Under the pieces are notes generated by a model. The model was not told where the DNA came from, did no database searches, and worked only from the letters and a program-made list of their open reading frames with translations. Shown here piece after piece: positions 8,808 to 54,343 of a stretch of 54,813 bases of DNA. The stretch covers positions 1-54,813 of the IMG/VR virus record IMGVR_UViG_3300002057_000001. One strand, 5' to 3'. The number at the start of each line of letters is the position of its first letter. Positions within the stretch are counted from its first letter, which is position 1. The translations under genes and the position numbers were made by a program. The stretch is from a virus.

Positions 8808-9049
8808 GCCCCCTCACCTGTCTTGGGGTGAGGGGTTGCGTCACCGGGGAAAGCGTCAATCCATGACAGCCCGCTGAGAACCTGCAAGTTTGCTTTGATA
8901 GGATCAGTGCCATCAGAAAGGCTGCGCTTTGCCTCAGCAAGAGCCTCATTGTCACTCATCGCACCGATAGCGATAGGTGAGGCACCTTTGCCGGGGAAAT
9001 AGCGGTATGTGTGATAAGGCGCAGCAGCGCGGGGTTCAATCTTTGTCAT
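8804..9049 (-). CDS. hypothetical protein; start codon embedded in the CCGGACATGACATG box
   Basis: 81-aa ORF with no Shine-Dalgarno sequence. Its ATG is the last triplet of the conserved box. Confidence 0.6.
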   Translation of the reverse strand: MTKIEPRAAAPYHTYRYFPGKGASPIAIGAMSDNEALAEAKRSLSDGTDPIKANLQVLSGLSWIDAFPGDATPHPKTGEGA

Positions 9050-9112
9050 GTCATGTCCGGTCAGGTATTTAGTTTGTGAAACCGTCCTAAATCGGCTTCA
9101 CATCATTTGCAA
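9042..9112 (-). promoter_or_regulatory. conserved promoter-like module: TTGCAA-N17-TAGGACGGTTT-N16-TACCTGAC-CGGACATGACATG
   Basis: TTGCAA is at 9107..9112, TAGGACGGTTT at 9079..9089, TACCTGAC at 9060..9067 and the box at 9047..9060. A second copy of the architecture is at 12260..12334. The 19-mer at 9042..9060 is identical to 19086..19104. Confidence 0.45.
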
Positions 9113-9129
9113 CAGATAATTTACAGCAG

Positions 9130-9867
9130 TTATGTTTGATTCTGATCAGTCACAAGATCAAAGGCCGCCTGCCATCCCTCATCAGCCAGTATCTCAGCGT
9201 ATGTTTCGGGATGCTTTGCCTTGAGGTCAGGCATGTACTCAGAGGCGATCCAGCGGCCTCTGACATCACCTTTAGAGAGGTAGCCCGCTGAGGTTGCCCA
9301 TGCTGAGGGTGACAGGATGAGTGCCTTGAAATCAGCGCGGGTGACGTATCCCCGTTTCTCAAGAATGATCATCAGTTTCATCGAGCGGATAGCCCAGGAT
9401 GACAAGACTTTCGGGGATGATGCCCCGGCCTCAACGCGCGGGATATACTCAGGCAGGATCAGGCGGGATGTCGGGCACTCATCAACCCATTCATCACTGA
9501 AATACCAGCTACGGCAATTCCAAGTGCTTAGCTTTGGCAGGTTGTCATGGCAGTAAGATGCGGCCTGCCTCAGCACGGTAACGCCGAGGTGACGGCATAG
9601 GCTTTTCAGCTTGTGATTCACATCAGAGGGCACAAGTACCGCCCTGAAATCCGGCCCGGTATCAGAGCGTGAGCGCCTGTCTCTGACGGCCTGCTCAATC
9701 ACCTCTGCATTGAGGCGCAGCTTTGCCTCAACGCCTATCTGATAGCCCTGAGGACCAATAAGCAAGATGTCATAATTCTGAGTTTCAGGGTATGCCGTCC
9801 ATTCCTCAGGCAGCCAGTCAATGAATGAGCGGCACAAGGCGGTTTCAGCCTTGAATATCTTGCTCAT
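9130..9867 (-). CDS. hypothetical protein; possible PD-(D/E)XK nuclease fold plus a C-terminal winged-helix-like region
   Basis: The pattern E8...YDILLIG...IGVEAKL resembles a D...ExK nuclease core. KLMIILEKRGYVTRADF resembles a wHTH. This was read by eye only. Confidence 0.35.
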   Translation of the reverse strand: MSKIFKAETALCRSFIDWLPEEWTAYPETQNYDILLIGPQGYQIGVEAKLRLNAEVIEQAVRDRRSRSDTGPDFRAVLVPSDVNHKLKSLCRHLGVTVLRQAASYCHDNLPKLSTWNCRSWYFSDEWVDECPTSRLILPEYIPRVEAGASSPKVLSSWAIRSMKLMIILEKRGYVTRADFKALILSPSAWATSAGYLSKGDVRGRWIASEYMPDLKAKHPETYAEILADEGWQAAFDLVTDQNQT

Positions 9868-44651: not shown

Positions 44652-45965
44652 TTAAACGCGCTGATTTGCCTCTGCGATGGCGGCACCCCAACCGGCCTTG
44701 GCCTCGGCAGGGGGCGTTGCGGTATCACCGCCGCCCATTTCAGCTTCACCCTTGGCCCGTTCCTCAACGGTCAGCGGGGCGGCCTTTTCAGTGCCGCCCT
44801 CAAGAGCGGTTTCAGCGAGGACGGCAGCAGCCGATTCCGCGCTCATGTCGCTGTTCAGCGCCATTGCCATTGCAGCTTTCGGGCGACCCTTGGCCGCGTC
44901 ACTGCTCATAATGCTGCTGATGCGGGCACGTTCCTGAGTTGCGCCCTCTTTCACGCCATCAGCTTTCGCCTGCGTGACGGCGGCATCATGTGCCGCCTGC
45001 GTCACTGCGTTCACCTCAGCCGTAGGCTGTGCTTTGTCAGTTGCCATCGTGATTGTGTCCTGTGTTTTGAAGCCGGAAACGGCCCCTTGCTGCAATTCGG
45101 CAAGCACCGTCTCGAACGTGCCGATTCGATCCGCTAGATTGCGGTCAATCGCCTGCTGCCCGATAAAGACGTTTGCCTCAGTTTGACGGGCCGCGCTTGC
45201 GTTCATACGCGCGCCCCTGCCGTTCTCAACCGTCTCAAGGAAACGGTCATAGAGAGTGTTGACGCGAGATTGCAGGTTGTCTTTCACGCCCGCTGACAGC
45301 GGGCCGAACGGGTGCCCGTCAACCTTGTTCGCCCCGGCGTGAATGATCGTCGCTTTCACGCCTTTTTTCTCAAGTTCGCCGCTGTGATCCATGTGAACCA
45401 AAACAACGCCGATGCTACCAATCATGCTAGTTGGTGAGCAGACGATTTCATGCGCCCCGGATGCGATGCCGTAGGCGGCAGATGCGGCCAGATCATCGAC
45501 AACAGCGATGACCGGCTTGACCGCGTTTGCAGCCCTGACCTTTTCAGCAAGGCCAAACATCCCGGTTGCCTCACCCCCAGGGCTGTCAATATCAAGGATG
45601 ATTGCCGTCACCTCATCATCCTGCATAGCAGCAGCAATCTGAGCGCCGATCCCCTCATAGGATGTCAGGCCGCTGTCAGCACCGATCCATGCGCCACGGT
45701 TGACCAATGATCCATGAATCTCAACAATCGCGACAGTCCCGGCCCGCCGAGCAAGGCTATAGCTGCCGTCTGAGCGCCGCCTGCGCCCTGTGAAGGCGCT
45801 GGCCTCAGTCTCAGGATCATCTTGGGGCTGATCCCCGATGTCATCAGAGCCGCCCCGCGTGATGCGGGCCTGCAATACCTGAAAGAGCGTCTGAGCCTTT
45901 CCCGGTTCCAACAGGAGCGGGGTGCCGATCATCCTATCAGCAATCAGGGGCAGATAGTTTGCCAT
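44652..45965 (-). CDS. S49 (SppA/ClpP-fold) head maturation protease with a scaffold-like C-terminal half (lambda gpC/Nu3-like)
   Basis: Start refined to MANYLPL. ILDIDSPGGEA...AASAAYGIASGA...GSIGV is the S49 core. Confidence 0.8.
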   Translation of the reverse strand: MANYLPLIADRMIGTPLLLEPGKAQTLFQVLQARITRGGSDDIGDQPQDDPETEASAFTGRRRRSDGSYSLARRAGTVAIVEIHGSLVNRGAWIGADSGLTSYEGIGAQIAAAMQDDEVTAIILDIDSPGGEATGMFGLAEKVRAANAVKPVIAVVDDLAASAAYGIASGAHEIVCSPTSMIGSIGVVLVHMDHSGELEKKGVKATIIHAGANKVDGHPFGPLSAGVKDNLQSRVNTLYDRFLETVENGRGARMNASAARQTEANVFIGQQAIDRNLADRIGTFETVLAELQQGAVSGFKTQDTITMATDKAQPTAEVNAVTQAAHDAAVTQAKADGVKEGATQERARISSIMSSDAAKGRPKAAMAMALNSDMSAESAAAVLAETALEGGTEKAAPLTVEERAKGEAEMGGGDTATPPAEAKAGWGAAIAEANQRV

Positions 45966-45966
45966 T

Positions 45967-46245
45967 TTAACACCCTCTCCGGCCACGCAGCGGGCCAACA
46001 GCAAATTTCCGGGCACGTTTACCCTTTGAAATGAGGCAGGCGTTTTCTGCCTCAGTGATTGCGGCATCAAGGCGGGGCAGGCTGGCCGTTGTGTATTTCA
46101 CGCGCCGCCTCACCCCGTTGCCGCTTTCAAAGTCATATTCAGCGACGGCCTCACCCGTTATCAGCTTGTCACGTTTCAGCCTCAGGCGGGCCGCCCTGAG
46201 GCATGGGTTTTCCTCATCAGGCGGGTCAACTACGCTTTCCGTCAT
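45967..46245 (-). CDS. lambda gpW-like head-tail joining protein
   Basis: LRAARLRLKRDKLITGEAV...RRRVKYT...L..LDAAITEAE parallels lambda gpW. Confidence 0.55.
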   Translation of the reverse strand: MTESVVDPPDEENPCLRAARLRLKRDKLITGEAVAEYDFESGNGVRRRVKYTTASLPRLDAAITEAENACLISKGKRARKFAVGPLRGRRGC

Positions 46246-49930: not shown

Positions 49931-50416
49931 TCAGTCAACATCCTCACCTGTCTGAATCGCGGCGGCCTTTTCATCCATTCCATCCGCGACCTTGTTCATC
50001 GCCGTTGCGATGATACCGTCAAGCCTTTTGCGGTCAGCAACATCACGGGTGAACCGCGCCGGAACAGCCATCATTTCTGAGCGCATCAGACCGGCTGCGC
50101 TGTCAAGAACAACGCGGACATCCTCAACCGGAACAAGCTGCCTGCGTTTCTCGGCCATTTCCATTTCAAGCCGATCACCCCGGATGCTTTGAATTCGGGA
50201 TGCCCCGGCGCTCTTTGATGAGCGCCTTTCCTCATCTTTCAGAAATTTGATGTAGCCCTGAACAACCGCTGCAAGGTTCCAGCGGTTCTTGGCTATTTTC
50301 TGAAAGTATTCCATTTTCTCAAGCTGCCCGATTCGGGCCTTGCTTACCATCAGCAGGCGGGCAGCCATATCCGTTGTAATGGTGCCGCGCTGTTCATCAG
50401 TCTCCGATGTACTCAT
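49931..50416 (-). CDS. terminase small subunit (lambda Nu1-like)
   Basis: The N-terminal HTH reads ITTDMAARLLMVSKARIGQLEK. The gene is directly upstream of gpA. An alternative start exists at 50470. Confidence 0.6.
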   Translation of the reverse strand: MSTSETDEQRGTITTDMAARLLMVSKARIGQLEKMEYFQKIAKNRWNLAAVVQGYIKFLKDEERRSSKSAGASRIQSIRGDRLEMEMAEKRRQLVPVEDVRVVLDSAAGLMRSEMMAVPARFTRDVADRKRLDGIIATAMNKVADGMDEKAAAIQTGEDVD

Positions 50417-50873
50417 CAGGTATCCATTCACTGACCTTGAACACATTAGAAGTGTTTCTGATGATGACACCGGCTGTTGTGATCCATCTTGTCTTGATCA
50501 CATAGTTACCGACATTCAAACCGCACTCACGCTCAAGATACCAAGCGTAAAGAGGAACCTGACCTAGTTTTTCCTCAGGGTCATAGTGAGAAAAACCGTC
50601 ACCAGTACATAACAGAATAATTTCCTCACCCTCAACGGAATAGACATCAGCAATCCATTGAGCGTCGAATTCTTGAAATACCGTCCGATCATAAACAATC
50701 ATCGGGTCGTCACCGATACGGTGATCAGGAACGCTGACAGCAGAAACAATCATCCAATTTGCAGGATGATTTGCCTCACGGTTTGTGAATTTAACAGCGG
50801 CAATGAAAGAAAGAACAATCACAACCAAGGCTATAAAGTCAACTGTGTAGCTTGCTGCTTTTGTTTTTCTCAT
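50397..50873 (-). CDS. membrane-anchored protein (AT-rich moron-like gene)
   Basis: The N-terminal transmembrane segment reads YTVDFIALVVIVLSFIAAV. GC is visibly lower than in the flanks. Confidence 0.55.
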   Translation of the reverse strand: MRKTKAASYTVDFIALVVIVLSFIAAVKFTNREANHPANWMIVSAVSVPDHRIGDDPMIVYDRTVFQEFDAQWIADVYSVEGEEIILLCTGDGFSHYDPEEKLGQVPLYAWYLERECGLNVGNYVIKTRWITTAGVIIRNTSNVFKVSEWIPDEYIGD

Positions 50874-51094
50874 AGCCCAAGAAATCCTTTGATCAGCGTT
50901 CTGATGCGCCCAAGATCAGTGACAATAGCCATTGCTGCTGCTGATGACCAGAACACGCCACGGCCCCACGCTTCCGCGTTGCTCATCTTGCGTTCATGCT
51001 CACCCGTCAATTCCTCAAGACGGGAAAGGCGCTCAATCAGTTGACTATTGCTTGATTTAAGCAACTCAATTTCAGTTTCAGGGGAAAGGCTCAT
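50870..51094 (-). CDS. small coiled-coil protein with a C-terminal hydrophobic segment
   Basis: 74-aa ORF. Confidence 0.45.
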   Translation of the reverse strand: MSLSPETEIELLKSSNSQLIERLSRLEELTGEHERKMSNAEAWGRGVFWSSAAAMAIVTDLGRIRTLIKGFLGL

Positions 51095-51141
51095 ACTTTT
51101 TCATCTCTCATCTAACAATCCCCCAAATCAAGTGAAGGGCA

Positions 51142-51163
51142 GGGCCGCCCTCAGGGGCGGCCC
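51142..51163 (-). terminator. GC hairpin after the protease gene (terminator candidate; alternatively part of cos)
   Basis: A 9-bp stem GGGCCGCCC / GGGCGGCCC with a 4-nt loop is followed on the minus strand by a moderately T-rich tail. Confidence 0.45.
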
Positions 51164-51169
51164 CCGTCA

Positions 51170-52174
51170 TCAGTTCAGCCCAACAGCCAGCCGGATCAAA
51201 GGCGCGGCTGTGAACGTCTGCTGAAAGCCACGCGCGAGGCAGACCCCCCCGCCCTCACGAATGACATAGGACAGCACTGAGATAGCGACACGCGGGTCAC
51301 TGGCAAGGCGGGCAGAGCCGCCGCTGTCACCCTGACAGGCACCCTCAACCAACCCGGTGGGTGACTGCACCGTGATCTTGATCAACCCGGCCCGCGTGGC
51401 GTTCATGTTCGCCATTTTGAGAACAGGTGACGCCATGCGCCCGGACACCGGATCACCCTTGGTTGATCCCCAGCCCGCGACGATGATGTCAGTGTCAGAC
51501 TTGATTGCCTGATACTCAGCCCGCGTTGCAAGCCGCGCCATCTGATGCGGGGCAAGGTCAACCGGCTCAACCAACTCGATCAGCGCGACATCCTCACCAT
51601 AGGTGACGCCGACATCAGGGTCATAGCCTGGGGAAACAAGAGCGCGGAAACCGTATGAGCGCTTCATCGTTTCACGGCTGGCCGTGCCGTCACCGGCACC
51701 GTACCAAATATCAAAACGGTCGTATTGCCCTTCCTGCTCAAGAACACAGTGAGCCGCCGTCACGACATAGCGCGGGCCGAGTTCAGCATAGATTGCGCCG
51801 GTACACTGCCCGAATCCTTGCTGAACAACACGGCCCTGATCATCCCGGTCAGCAAAGGCCATCTGAATCAGGACAGCCCCCGGCACATCAAGCAGGGTTG
51901 CCTCACGGCCCCCGACGATTGCCGCGACAGGCTGCCCCCGGCGCAGGCTGAGGCTTGCGGGCACCTGAGAACCGACAGCATAGTCAGGTTTCACGCGCCC
52001 GGTTTCAACAACACGCAGCGCTGACAGATCAGCCTCACCTGCTGCCGCGAGGATCACAGGTGCCTGAACGGCCCCGGCCTCATCAGTGAATTGCGCCGTG
52101 ATCAGTCCGGCTGAGGCCGTCAGCATCACCGCGCCGACAAGGCCAAGGGCAAAGGGTTTCAGCTTTCCCAACAT
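51170..52174 (-). CDS. secreted trypsin-like (S1 family) serine protease
   Basis: The signal peptide reads MLGKLKPFALGLVGAVMLTASAGLITAQ. The catalytic triad motifs VVTAAHCV, DVALIEL and CQGDSGGS occur in the canonical order. Confidence 0.8.
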   Translation of the reverse strand: MLGKLKPFALGLVGAVMLTASAGLITAQFTDEAGAVQAPVILAAAGEADLSALRVVETGRVKPDYAVGSQVPASLSLRRGQPVAAIVGGREATLLDVPGAVLIQMAFADRDDQGRVVQQGFGQCTGAIYAELGPRYVVTAAHCVLEQEGQYDRFDIWYGAGDGTASRETMKRSYGFRALVSPGYDPDVGVTYGEDVALIELVEPVDLAPHQMARLATRAEYQAIKSDTDIIVAGWGSTKGDPVSGRMASPVLKMANMNATRAGLIKITVQSPTGLVEGACQGDSGGSARLASDPRVAISVLSYVIREGGGVCLARGFQQTFTAAPLIRLAVGLN

Positions 52175-52380
52175 CCGTTTTTCTCCCCGTTGGCTTCATG
52201 GCTATCAAGCCAATCAGACAACTCCTGTGAAATGACTTCGATGTCCTCAGCAGTGAATTCCGCTGAGGTCCACCCCGCGCACTTGTCAACCGGGGCTGTT
52301 TGAGGTGCCTGTTCCCCGATGAGGAAGGCACACCCGCTCAGCATCAGTGACAGGATCACGGCAAGGCCGAGGCGCTTCAT
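52159..52380 (-). CDS. lipoprotein, o-spanin candidate
   Basis: The lipobox is LMLSG-C. The mature part is about 55 aa with two further Cys residues. The gene overlaps the protease start by 16 nt. Confidence 0.6.
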   Translation of the reverse strand: MKRLGLAVILSLMLSGCAFLIGEQAPQTAPVDKCAGWTSAEFTAEDIEVISQELSDWLDSHEANGEKNGCWES

Positions 52381-52661
52381 TGCAGCGCCTCAACGTGTTC
52401 ATAGACGCGCCCGGTTTCCCCGCCGTGAGCGCTGTCAAAAACACTGACACCCTCAAGAGCGCGCTCAACCGCGTACAGCGCTTCACGCTGCTTGTCTGGG
52501 CACACCTGCCCATCAGGGCCGCTCAGCGTTTCTTTTGCTGCTTTCAGAGCAAGAGTGCTGCTGTGCATACCGCGCATGATTTCAGCGAGGGTATCCGGTG
52601 CTTTTAGCACCTGCTCAACTGAATCTTTCAGCCGCATAGCCTTATCAAGATCAGTCATCAT
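52377..52661 (-). CDS. hypothetical soluble protein in the lysis cassette
   Basis: 94 aa, with an ATGA overlap to the lipoprotein gene. Confidence 0.5.
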   Translation of the reverse strand: MMTDLDKAMRLKDSVEQVLKAPDTLAEIMRGMHSSTLALKAAKETLSGPDGQVCPDKQREALYAVERALEGVSVFDSAHGGETGRVYEHVEALQ

Positions 52662-52667
52662 GTTCCC

Positions 52668-52937
52668 CTATTGCTTACGCCGTGCAAAGCGGTCGCGAAG
52701 GCGCTGGCGTGAGCCGCCGTCACGAGATTGCCGGTCAATCTCTTGTCGGGTTTGCAGCCGGTCAATCACGTCATCAGCCTGCTGCTTTGCAGCAGTAGTT
52801 TCCGCGATCACCCGGCCACGGGTTTCAGATTGACGGTTCGTCAACCAAAAAAGGCCGATGAGGCCCAGCGCGGCGAACATCCACCCCTTGAGGCGGCCCG
52901 CCACTGTCAGCGCCGCGCTGATGACTGCCTGCATCAT
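52668..52937 (-). CDS. small membrane protein: i-spanin or holin candidate
   Basis: Hydrophobic stretches AVISAALTVAG and WMFAALGLIGLFWL are followed by a charged coiled-coil tail ending RDRFARRKQ. Confidence 0.5.
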   Translation of the reverse strand: MMQAVISAALTVAGRLKGWMFAALGLIGLFWLTNRQSETRGRVIAETTAAKQQADDVIDRLQTRQEIDRQSRDGGSRQRLRDRFARRKQ

Positions 52938-53254
52938 GCCGGATCAGCGGCCACGGCCACTGCCTTTGCAGGCTCAGGTGCATCAGCCGCGCCCAAAGAG
53001 GGCGAGGGCGCGGGCTGCGCTGCCGTCGCTGGGGCTTCCTGCTGCACCCGCGCCGGGGCTTTCTTGCTGATCGTCAGCGTGAGGGATGCGGCCTGCATCA
53101 CTTCCTGCCCATCCTGTGATGTCGCGGTCGGCATCCCCGGCGTGACCACTTCCGCCGCCAGACCGCCAGAGCCATTCGGCTTCACTGTGATCTGTTCCCC
53201 GCTCTGCCCGGTGATGATCAGGCTTGATGCGTTCGGCTCGATATAGATTCCCAT
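52934..53254 (-). CDS. hypothetical protein encoded out of frame inside the 3' end of the endolysin ORF
   Basis: The ATG at 53254 has GAGAGGAA 8 nt upstream. Third positions are strongly GC-rich in this frame. An ATGA overlap links it to the next gene. Confidence 0.5.
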   Translation of the reverse strand: MGIYIEPNASSLIITGQSGEQITVKPNGSGGLAAEVVTPGMPTATSQDGQEVMQAASLTLTISKKAPARVQQEAPATAAQPAPSPSLGAADAPEPAKAVAVAADPA

Positions 53255-54272
53255 TTTCAGGGTTCCTCTCAGGTTGAAGCGATGCCGCAACGGCCCGCTG
53301 ATCACGATAAATTTTAACTGCCGTCCAGATGATCCAAAGACCGATAGCGGCAACGGCAGCGGCGATCAGCCAGGGCAGAAACTCAAGCAGGGTGCTGCCC
53401 GCTGCGCCCCAATCACCGATTGCCAGCGAATCGAAAAACCGGGCAACGCCTGAAAGGCCCATGTTCCCGGCGATGGTGCTGGCCGTGGTGAATATCGTCA
53501 GGCTGCGCCCCGGACGCTGCCTGACAAAATCCTCAGCCTTTTCCATCAGGGAACGCTTGGGCTGAACGGCAAACTCAGAGCCGCGCGCCTTCATGGCTTC
53601 CCACGTCTTGCGCCCGACGATGCCGTCAACAGTCAGGCCGAGACGGCCTTGCAGCGCTCGCACGGCCTGCTCAGTGCTGTCACCGAACCAGCTATCAACT
53701 TTCAGATCAGCGAAACCATGCTCATTCCGCAGCAGCATTTGCAGGCGGGCAACAGCATCCCCGGTTGATCCGAGCCGGATAACCTCAGTGACTTCCCCGC
53801 CCGCCTTCCGAACGGCAGCGCGCAGCTTGCCATCATAGCCGCGCTCAATCGCTTTCGGCCCGTTGTAAAGGATAGCGAACCGGCTCAGATCACCGGCACG
53901 AAGCGCTGAACCGGCCTGAGGCTCAACCGTCATGCAGTAGCCAACGAATGAGGCCGCCTGAGCGGCATCATTCTCAGGGTTCATCAGAGCGCGCATCATT
54001 GCCTGAGCGGTCGGATAACCAAGCTGCTGATGCCAGCGGCCCAACACCTGAAACACGCCGATTGAGCAGCAGCGCGCTGCCGCCTCATCATTGATCTTGA
54101 CAGCCTCAGCATAAGAGCCAGCCCGCGCGCCGGTTTCCCGTCTGAACAGGTGCGGTTCAAAGCGGCGCAGATGACGGCCCAAAGAGGACTCGACATAGGC
54201 GACGGCCCACGCCGCGTCCTGATCACAGTCAACGCCGCGCGCCGCGCCCGCAACAATGTTTTGGATGCTCAC
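52983..54272 (-). CDS. endolysin: N-acetylmuramidase-like domain + PG_binding_1 domain + C-terminal hydrophobic segments
   Basis: The GTG start has AGAGAGG upstream. RFEPHLF...SIGVFQVLG...FAILYNGP...YDGKL matches a muramidase family. GSTGDAVARLQMLL...DGIVGRKTW is a peptidoglycan-binding repeat. LLEFLPWLIAAAVAAIGLWIIWTAV is a transmembrane segment. Confidence 0.75.
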   Translation of the reverse strand: MSIQNIVAGAARGVDCDQDAAWAVAYVESSLGRHLRRFEPHLFRRETGARAGSYAEAVKINDEAAARCCSIGVFQVLGRWHQQLGYPTAQAMMRALMNPENDAAQAASFVGYCMTVEPQAGSALRAGDLSRFAILYNGPKAIERGYDGKLRAAVRKAGGEVTEVIRLGSTGDAVARLQMLLRNEHGFADLKVDSWFGDSTEQAVRALQGRLGLTVDGIVGRKTWEAMKARGSEFAVQPKRSLMEKAEDFVRQRPGRSLTIFTTASTIAGNMGLSGVARFFDSLAIGDWGAAGSTLLEFLPWLIAAAVAAIGLWIIWTAVKIYRDQRAVAASLQPERNPENGNLYRAERIKPDHHRAERGTDHSEAEWLWRSGGGSGHAGDADRDITGWAGSDAGRIPHADDQQESPGAGAAGSPSDGSAARALALFGRG

Positions 54273-54343
54273 AACAGCCTCTCTTTCGGTTTGAATTTTG
54301 GAGCGTGACGGTCGGTGCTACCCCGCCGCTGTGCCTGAGGGTT

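Follow-up and report, generated by a model that had tools for sequence, protein, structure and literature searches.

Background

The lysis of diderm bacteria by phages is explained by three functions, those of the holin, the endolysin and the spanin. The closest described gene arrangements are the canonical cassettes of phages of diderm hosts (holin, endolysin, i- and o-spanin), of which S-R-Rz-Rz1 of lambda is an example. The block of genes analysed here lies in a window of 54,813 nucleotides (positions 1 to 54,813 of the IMG/VR virus record IMGVR_UViG_3300002057_000001), and it shares with such cassettes its co-oriented overlapping genes, a small transmembrane (TM) protein and an outer-membrane lipoprotein. 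As in those cassettes, the endolysin is a muramidase; the location of the block, immediately upstream of terS, recalls lambdoid phages. It differs from the canonical cassette by a fourth gene, which codes for a predicted exported protease and is coupled to the lipoprotein gene, and by holin-like segments that are joined in frame with the endolysin; the spanins are here candidates.

A precedent for an extra lysis enzyme is found in LysB of mycobacteriophages, a mycolyl-arabinogalactan esterase and serine hydrolase of the lysis cassette that is needed for efficient but not absolute lysis and cuts the tether linking the wall to the outer layer (PMC5707550). LysB thus resembles the role proposed below for the protease, but it has an alpha/beta-hydrolase fold of the cutinase type, cleaves an ester bond to mycolic acid and acts on another host envelope. 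In the alphaproteobacterium Caulobacter, the CARD-NLR-like LypABC hub lyses the cell for GTA release, and the trypsin-fold serine peptidase activity of its LypA and LypC is needed for phage-like particles to be released (PMC13236601). Unlike the protease of the present phage, which is single-domain, phage-encoded and predicted to be exported, these two are immune-type proteins encoded by the host, with several domains (CARD/ATPase, endonuclease) and a cytoplasmic location. A CARD-NLR/LypA-type reading of the protease was rejected on this difference in architecture and location.

Regarding the enzyme itself, fold and catalytic triad are like those of VesB and VesC from Vibrio cholerae, of the Streptomyces and Saccharopolyspora trypsins and of elastase and PR3. 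The pre-pro layout, the Ile16-type N-terminus and the 42-58 and 191-220 disulfides are also those of secreted S1A enzymes. The protease departs from these enzymes by an identity of only 20-27%, by Gly189 in place of Asp189, by the lack of a 168-182 disulfide, by a pro-segment that is long (about 57 aa) and conserved, and by the absence of a GlyGly-CTERM or other C-terminal domain. It is moreover encoded by a phage within a lysis module, whereas VesB-type enzymes come from the bacterial secretome. A literature search of incomplete coverage retrieved no account of phage lysis cassettes that include a secreted S1 protease.

Identification of an S1A serine protease

The protease is encoded by an intact ORF of 334 aa located on the minus strand (51170..52174) and was characterized by its Pfam Trypsin match, by family alignments and by an AF2 model. 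The initial annotation had read all three S1-family catalytic motifs in the sequence and proposed a Pfam search. The motifs are present in the expected order, TAAHC (139-143), DVALIEL (195-201) and GDSGG (282-286), and the search matched PF00089 with 63.4 bits for a cut-off of 20.6 (E 3.6e-17), far beyond chance. In the family alignments, the catalytic residues His142, Asp195 and Ser284, which follow the order His57, Asp102, Ser195, are invariant in the five members. Four cysteines forming the pairs C124-C143 and C280-C312, equal to the 42-58 and 191-220 disulfides of S1A enzymes, are likewise invariant in all homologs. The best PDB profile match was VesB (4lk4, E 1.5e-14), followed by trypsins.

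The AF2 model (pLDDT 83, pTM 0.81) was compared with known structures using Foldseek and VIA. The top matches were crab and Hypoderma collagenases, elastase, Streptomyces and Fusarium trypsins and PR3, with VIA Z-scores of 23.5-24.8 and rmsd values of 2.2-2.8 Å over 204-219 aligned residues. The modelled protein has the double beta-barrel chymotrypsin fold. All the top sequence and structure matches listed were S1A enzymes, and relatives in the alpha-lytic-type S1E/SGPB group could still exist outside of these. By its profile, triad, fold and zymogen-type N-terminus, the protein is a member of the S1A (chymotrypsin/trypsin) family. A head-maturation role was rejected, as that position is filled by a separate S49 prohead protease gene at 44652-46070, between the portal and capsid genes.

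The polypeptide can be divided into an export segment (residues ~7-28), a pro-segment or N-terminal extension (~29-85) and the catalytic domain (86-334). The pro-segment, conserved over about 57 aa, ends at Ala85. It is followed by Ile86-Val-Gly-Gly (codons 51908..51919, minus strand), the putative mature N-terminus equivalent to Ile16, with a putative activation cleavage after Ala85. In the VIA structural alignment residue 86 is aligned with residue 16 of elastase and trypsin. This residue is Ile or Val in all five family members, V87, G88 and G89 are invariant in them, and D283, the equivalent of Asp194 and predicted partner of the Ile16-type N-terminus, is conserved in the family.

To describe the S1 pocket, residues 189 and 190 were numbered using the C191-Q-G-D-S195 motif and the alignment with VesB. 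The pocket contains Gly189 (Gly278, invariant across the family), Ala190 (Ala279) and Val216. Having Gly and not Asp at position 189, the enzyme is not a trypsin sensu stricto with Arg/Lys specificity; the label "trypsin-like" given by the initial annotation is right for the fold and wrong for the specificity. The predicted specificity is probably elastase-like, for small aliphatic residues.

The signal peptide also noted in that annotation could be retained as an N-terminal hydrophobic export segment, whose n-region carries two Lys and whose residues 7-30 are hydrophobic (Kyte-Doolittle 1.93), and not as a defined cleavage site, the possible site A20-S-A22 not being kept in homologs. The predicted export of the protease is well supported by this segment together with the conserved disulfide cysteines, and the segment would be either a cleaved signal or a signal anchor.

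Neighbouring lysis genes

The endolysin gene (52983..54272, minus strand) encodes an N-acetylmuramidase with a PG_binding_1 domain and in-frame membrane segments, including a strong TM segment at about 290-322. It was detected by PF11860 (E 5e-21) and PF01471 (E 1e-15) as well as by PHROG endolysin families, and these matches identify it as a bona fide endolysin.

An 89-aa protein (52668..52937, minus strand) combines an N-terminal hydrophobic segment with a charged C-terminal part and is a candidate i-spanin, or a holin. A 73-aa lipoprotein (52159..52380, minus strand), with the lipobox LSGC (Cys17), is a candidate o-spanin; KCAG[WF], VIS-EL and a C-terminal Cys are conserved, Cys34 and Cys70 being the conserved cysteines. 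The spanin identity of both proteins is weakly indicated, by a match of the 89-aa protein to phrog_1026 'Rz-like spanin' (E 1.3e-3) and by Atlas, where the named clusters nearest to the lipoprotein are RzoQ, LysC and Rz1 at 0.77-0.79. In the same resource the lipoprotein is found at 0.95 among phage lipoproteins of about 70 aa, and the 89-aa protein at 0.93 among unnamed phage proteins of about 90 aa. Pfam and NCBIfam gave no spanin match for either protein. Between them lies a 94-aa ORF (52377..52661, minus strand) that lacks TM segments and matches no family.

Cargo genes are classically met in the slot that separates lysis genes from terS, an observation that goes against an accessory role of the protease in lysis.

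Coupling to the lipoprotein gene and expression

The lipoprotein ORF (52380..52159) overlaps the ATG of the protease gene (52174) by exactly 16 nt, as the initial annotation had it, and a GGGGAG ribosome-binding site is found about 8 nt upstream of this ATG. From this arrangement, translation of the protease gene is taken to be coupled to that of the lipoprotein gene. The GC hairpin announced after the protease stop was also recovered. It starts 5 nt downstream of the stop (51141..51164, minus strand) and has a 10-bp G/C stem made of the arms 51164-51155 and 51150-51141. The 91-nt region has an MFE of -33.4 kcal/mol and a z-score of -2.2, with a weak U-tail, and the hairpin could act as a terminator or serve to stabilise the RNA. 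The protease had further been described as the terminal gene of the unit. It is indeed the 3'-most gene of a packed co-oriented block, but it need not mark a transcript end: same-strand genes continue downstream, and no equivalent hairpin is found behind the protease gene in the second genomic context described below. Its 3' border is better read as a module boundary only.

A scan for sigma70-type consensus sites detected no minus-strand promoter within the block. The GC3 of the protease gene (0.645) is close to those of the endolysin (0.633) and major capsid protein (0.665) genes, and its composition is native to the phage. No integrase was found in the complete phage genome, which makes expression at a prophage stage unlikely. 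No PADLOC model matched the protease, two of its homologs or the neighbouring genes at E <= 0.01, and a PADLOC-type defence protease such as PDC-S45 was rejected on this basis. By these tests (integrase, PADLOC), the protease would be neither a lysogen-expressed nor a defence gene. We consider it probable that an active S1A protease is exported and co-expressed with the lysis module.

A second genomic context and the distribution of the protease

The protease was found in a second, unrelated context, L003, a metagenome contig of 5.5 kb; the linkage claims made here are based on two contexts in all, the phage and this contig. The gene order is the same in both: the gene of a membrane-tailed muramidase comes first, followed by those of a small TM protein, a lipoprotein and the protease. 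In L003 the lipoprotein and protease genes overlap by 19 nt, with a GGGAAGG ribosome-binding site. Only these four genes are common to the two contexts and the flanks differ, L003 having a C1q/DUF2793 tail fibre upstream. Between the phage and L003 the protease is the best conserved gene of the module: its product shows 53% identity, whereas the endolysin reaches 42%, the lipoprotein 33-36% and the TM protein 26%. The endolysin is kept up to about residue 323.

The unit of the initial annotation also comprised an ORF overlapping the endolysin gene and the 94-aa ORF. Neither is present in L003, which also lacks counterparts of orf74 and orf158, and it is the four shared genes that recur. The survey of relatives suggested there gave a divided answer: an S1 protease does stand beside the spanin candidates in L003, but phages with TerL and portal proteins 47-66% identical to those of our phage lack the protease and the whole module with it. 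The four-gene lysis module appears portable. The protease is missing from isolated phages of Alphaproteobacteria whose endolysins are related, which shows that it is dispensable for lysis in general. Portal relatives were found in Pararhizobium, Aquibium, Roseovarius and Loktanella, those of the endolysin in phages of Paracoccus, Rhizobium and Agrobacterium; the host is therefore probably an alphaproteobacterium.

The protease family counts about 5 members among 1.84 billion representatives. No match to the protease was obtained by tblastn against 50,697 GenBank phages or against the PLSDB plasmids, in PHROGs even at E 10, or in NCBIfam. A single-sequence scan of IMG/VR and an alignment pattern scan of GTDB genomes also yielded none. 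The endolysin was likewise without match in pattern scans of IMG/VR (single sequence and alignment) and of GTDB genomes (alignment), which are pattern-limited and hence weak negatives. The alignment scan of IMG/VR with the protease retrieved only distant S1 proteins of 23-30% identity. No recognisable lysis genes were found next to them, and no general rule placing S1 proteases beside lysis genes could be drawn from them.

Proposed function and alternative explanations

We tentatively favour, as the leading one among several readings, a late zymogen that would serve in the periplasm as an accessory protease for lysis or exit, for which the linkage in two contexts is the support. The protease would be synthesised late, along with the lysis proteins, reach the periplasm through Sec in zymogen form and be activated by cleavage after Ala85. 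This activation could be autocatalytic, since the Ala85 site fits the predicted small-aliphatic, elastase-like specificity. The mature enzyme would then attack proteins of the envelope, as an accessory factor in lysis or exit. Against this reading, canonical models predict that the outer membrane is no longer held by tethers after degradation of the wall. Candidate substrates would include protein tethers between outer membrane and peptidoglycan, such as the beta-barrel outer-membrane proteins covalently linked to the wall in Rhizobiales (PMC10787603). Receptor or surface proteins on cell debris could be other substrates.

It is rather unlikely, though the most probable of the alternatives, that the protease, alone or with the lipoprotein, is a cargo gene at the end of the lysis operon, in the variable slot before the terminase, and unrelated to release. 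It could then serve superinfection exclusion by cutting receptors or pili from the periplasm, act against competitors or remodel the host envelope. The hairpin after the gene and the extreme rarity of the family would fit such a gene. So would the ParB-to-TerS interval, which varies from 0.2 to 3.7 kb among relatives, all without protease, and PF00089 is absent from 5 related records. Absence from relatives is a moron trait, yet the whole lysis module is absent from them too. Translational coupling to the preceding lipoprotein gene, the lack of an own promoter in the sigma70-like scan and the native composition speak against cargo, as do the absence of a PADLOC match and of an integrase. Moreover, in L003 the protease travels with the endolysin module, located by a tail fibre and not by the terminase.

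Another reading, which we hold to be improbable, makes the lipoprotein and the protease a functional pair, the 73-aa lipoprotein being an anchor, an inhibitor or a substrate of the protease and not an o-spanin. The two genes overlap in both contexts, both families are tiny (3 lipoproteins and about 5 proteases found), and a spanin match for the lipoprotein was obtained in none of Pfam, NCBIfam and PHROG. The mature part of the lipoprotein also has few prolines and a conserved acidic helix-like motif. The rarity is however soft evidence, the lipoprotein search being word-limited, and one of the lipoproteins (P0165) lies on a 5227-bp contig where no protease-family member is recorded. In addition, all the named Atlas clusters nearest to the lipoprotein are o-spanin families, and the L003 lipoprotein gene shares at least 80 nt, in another frame, with the TM-protein gene before it, the typical architecture of overlapped spanins.

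Finally, a 'releasin'-like trigger, in which the periplasmic protease would set or sharpen lysis timing by cutting the exposed part of membrane-tethered endolysin or spanin subunits, is hardly to be expected, this purely inferential idea being opposed by the lack of a signal sequence on the large N-terminal endolysin domain, even though the protease co-occurs with exactly the endolysin type that uniquely extends into membrane segments, both these and the Gly/Ala-rich loop that joins them being conserved, and non-canonical accessory proteins of phage Mu can control endolysin release (PMC9239132).

Implications for phage lysis

Even as mere cargo, the protease would represent a very rare S1A lineage, limited to phage lysis modules as far as visible. 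The protein is small, self-contained and easily expressed, which makes the question of its role directly testable. A more general proposal, which we put forward as a long shot, is that phages of some Alphaproteobacteria have a fourth enzymatic lysis step. An exported protease of elastase-like type, controlled as a zymogen, would sever either the proteins that tether the outer membrane to peptidoglycan, in Rhizobiales the wall-linked beta-barrel proteins, or the membrane tether of the endolysin. It would be a Gram-negative counterpart of LysB and would extend the scheme of holin, endolysin and spanin by proteolysis. If an accessory role in lysis or exit is true, an exported protease hard-wired to spanin genes would be a function beyond holin, endolysin and spanin. 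It would point to a feature of the host envelope that these phages must cut, possibly the protein links between outer membrane and wall of Alphaproteobacteria, or alternatively to a proteolytic control of lysis or of the loss of progeny on debris.

Protease gene, fold and specificity

The protease is encoded on the minus strand at 52174..51170 as a 334-aa ORF, in a record of 54,813 bp that is complete and bounded by direct terminal repeats. The three S1 motifs reported in the initial annotation were recovered in order, TAAHC at residues 139-143, DVALIEL at 195-201 and GDSGG at 282-286, and the Pfam search that it had proposed matched Trypsin (PF00089) with an E-value of 3.6e-17, scoring 63.4 bits where the cut-off is 20.6. 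The GC3 of the gene (0.645) is in line with that of the endolysin (0.633), portal (0.619) and major capsid protein (0.665) genes.

A PDB search with a profile of the 4 closest homologs retrieved Vibrio VesB (4lk4, E 1.5e-14), then trypsins and factor D. The AlphaFold2 model (29-sequence alignment, mean pLDDT 83, pTM 0.81) sits among classic S1A enzymes: its neighbours by Foldseek and VIA-align were crab and Hypoderma collagenases, pancreatic elastase, Fusarium and Saccharopolyspora trypsins, chymase and PR3, and VIA-align against S1A enzymes gave Z scores of 23.5-24.8 and rmsd of 2.2-2.8 Å over 204-219 aligned residues. The Ile16 N-terminus is the product of S1A zymogen activation. Model residue 86 aligned to target residue 16 in essentially every structural-alignment row, so that Ile86-Val-Gly-Gly is the counterpart of this N-terminus. 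All five family members keep [IV]-V-G-G, Asp283 (residue 194), the catalytic triad and the pairs Cys124/Cys143 (42/58) and Cys280/Cys312 (191/220); the protease has four cysteines in total. Ala or Gly precedes the Ile86 position in every member, which makes self-activation plausible.

The S1 pocket was assigned from the motif register and the VesB alignment. From the C191-Q-G-D-S195 register, Gly278 corresponds to residue 189 and is invariant in the family; Ala occupies position 190, and position 216 has a beta-branched side chain, Val or Thr. The pocket is thus predicted to be elastase/PR3-like, Gly at 189 speaking against tryptic specificity, and the earlier designation "trypsin-like" applies to the fold and not to the specificity.

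At the N-terminus, a hydrophobic stretch (residues 7-30, Kyte-Doolittle 1.93) follows two Lys. A20-S-A22, which is not kept in homologs, could be a signal-peptidase site, and the stretch may serve as a cleaved signal or as a signal anchor. The 29-85 segment is more than a linker, because its residues 50-70 are well modelled (pLDDT >90) and conserved.

Gene neighbourhood

ParB-like and Mom-like genes precede the endolysin gene (54272..52983; Muramidase PF11860, E 5e-21; PG_binding_1, E 1e-15), all on the minus strand like the genes that follow: an 89-aa protein with a hydrophobic N-terminal segment (phrog_1026, "Rz-like spanin", E 1.3e-3), a 94-aa ORF (52377-52661) with no match in Pfam, PHROGs, NCBIfam or PADLOC, and a 73-aa lipoprotein (52380..52159) just before the protease. 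The protease ATG (52174) lies inside the lipoprotein ORF, confirming the 16-nt overlap noticed initially, and a GGGGAG ribosome-binding site stands about 8 nt 5' of it. The hairpin noticed at the same stage is a 10-bp G/C stem (arms 51164-51155 and 51150-51141) beginning 5 nt past the protease stop, with a weak U-tail. No sigma70-like promoter was found on the minus strand of 51170-54300. Read directly from the sequence, the S1A enzyme is intact, has export features and a zymogen-type architecture, and is coupled to the lysis genes.

The endolysin ORF extends, still in frame, through membrane segments that include a strong TM at about residues 290-322; this tail may reflect a fusion of endolysin and holin, or else an internal start site. 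In the isolated phages Paracoccus Pben1 and Aurantimonas AmM-1, whose endolysins are related, the endolysin is shorter, small holin-like genes come next, and there is no protease. The lipoprotein family, with a third homolog (P0165) at 62% identity, keeps the lipobox Cys, KCAG[WF], VIS-EL and a C-terminal Cys. By Atlas features the lipoprotein falls at 0.95 among phage lipoproteins of about 70 aa, its nearest named clusters being RzoQ, LysC and Rz1 at 0.77-0.79, lead level only; the 89-aa protein falls at 0.92-0.93 among unnamed phage proteins of about 90 aa. The two fit, without proof, a candidate spanin pair, and the 89-aa protein might alternatively be a holin.

Between the hairpin and TerS lie two small low-GC ORFs (50397-51094), of 74 aa (coiled coil and hydrophobic end) and 158 aa (N-terminal TM). 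Their GC3 values are 0.48 and 0.40 against 0.55-0.67 in neighbouring genes, they were not found in any relative examined nor in the second context described below, and they are the real compositional insert of this region. TerS, TerL, portal, S49 prohead protease and major capsid protein genes follow. As the genome has its own S49 prohead protease, a head-maturation role was rejected for the S1 enzyme.

A second genomic context

The 5,527-bp metagenome contig L003 carries endolysin, TM protein, lipoprotein and protease genes in the same order. Its endolysin homolog (874-2109, 42% identity) has a membrane tail as in the window, shared up to about residue 323 and not conserved past that point. 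Its TM protein (91 aa) is 26% identical to the 89-aa protein and its lipoprotein 33-36% identical to ours, the protease being the best conserved of the four (53%). The TM-protein and lipoprotein genes overlap by at least 80 nt out of frame, apparently an "overlapped" spanin layout, whereas in the window the 94-aa ORF separates these candidate i-spanin and o-spanin genes. The lipoprotein and protease genes of L003 share 19 nt, from the protease ATG to the lipoprotein stop, with a GGGAAGG ribosome-binding site ahead of the ATG.

Nothing else is common to both contexts: L003 has a C1q/DUF2793 tail fibre gene upstream, and an unrelated TM protein gene, then opposite-strand genes, downstream. With four genes shared and the flanks different, the set behaves, in these two contexts, as a portable module ending in the protease. 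The initial proposal that the protease closes a lysis unit is thus supported, by these two contexts, for these four genes; the "overlapping ORF", the 94-aa ORF and the hairpin that it also included have no counterpart in L003.

Relatives, lysis slot and host

The relatives sharing the packaging and head genes (11 IMG/VR loci, TerL relatives at 47-66% identity, and Microcystis phage Mae-JY30) have neither the endolysin, the small proteins nor the protease, which suggests that the whole lysis block is a mosaic unit. Both PF00089 and PF11860 were absent from 5 related records, 43 to 97% complete. A survey of whether related phages keep an S1 protease beside the spanins, suggested initially, was thus negative among TerL relatives, where the whole module is missing. 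The ParB-like to TerS interval spans about 0.2-3.7 kb in relatives (L005-L015, L002) and is a variable slot, filled in the window by Mom and the whole lysis module.

The complete genome yielded no tyrosine or serine integrase, yet IMG/VR classes two TerL relatives as proviruses; the telomere phages VP882 and phiHAP-1 are among the TerL relatives that lie further away. The portal has its named relatives in prophages of Pararhizobium (66%), Aquibium, Roseovarius and Loktanella, and the endolysin relatives belong to phages of Paracoccus, Rhizobium, Agrobacterium and Ochrobactrum, so the host is probably an alphaproteobacterium.

Proposed function and rarity of the family

The best-supported functional reading, held tentatively, is that of an accessory lysis or exit factor, as initially proposed. 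Its main support is the module shared with L003, together with the lysis-gene coupling; the base is two contexts, in which the neighbours are candidate spanins. The protease would be made late together with the lysis proteins, exported via Sec, activated by cleavage after Ala85, and would cut envelope proteins with small-aliphatic specificity. Candidate substrates are outer membrane-wall protein tethers or, on debris, receptor and surface proteins. Such tethers consist, in Rhizobiales, of beta-barrel OMPs attached by way of an N-terminal Ala-Asp motif (PMC10787603). As a functional analogy we propose mycobacteriophage LysB, an extra cassette hydrolase that severs the connection between wall and outer layer and on which efficient lysis depends (PMC5707550). 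Trypsin-fold peptidase activity can also be essential for GTA release, as with LypABC of Caulobacter (PMC13236601), but LypABC is cytoplasmic, multidomain and host-encoded, whereas our protease is phage-encoded with export features.

Set against the same coupling and recurrence, a cargo gene without part in release appears rather unlikely. That lipoprotein and protease, overlapping in both contexts, form a dedicated pair is improbable. Processing of the phage's own lysis proteins is less probable still, even with phage Mu releasin as a precedent for non-canonical accessory lysis proteins (PMC9239132).

Only 3 relatives at 45-53% identity were found among 5.8 billion clustered proteins, and a profile search run exhaustively over 1.84 billion representatives added one member, P0019 (E 8.5e-47), below which scores fall to generic or multidomain S1A proteins. 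No match was obtained among 50,697 GenBank phages or in PLSDB plasmids, PHROGs (even at E 10), NCBIfam or PADLOC, including PDC-S45, and a PDC-S45-type defence protease was set aside accordingly. S1 proteins from IMG/VR are only 23-30% identical, and no recognisable lysis genes were seen beside them. One viral contig (IMGVR_UViG_3300003860_000243, 75.7 kb; loci L041, L044 and L051) carries at least 3 such distant genes, two of them in L041 (7662-8663 and 9223-10296) with a thioredoxin gene (8810-9202) in between. About 25 further IMG/VR contigs (L017-L040, L045), which measure about 36-117 kb and mostly 61-73 kb, have a distant match of identical score in common (24% identity, residues 135-290), a recurrent S1-domain gene of one widespread viral lineage. 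By sequence comparison, the protease of the window thus appears to represent a new, very rare S1A lineage within a variant phage lysis module.
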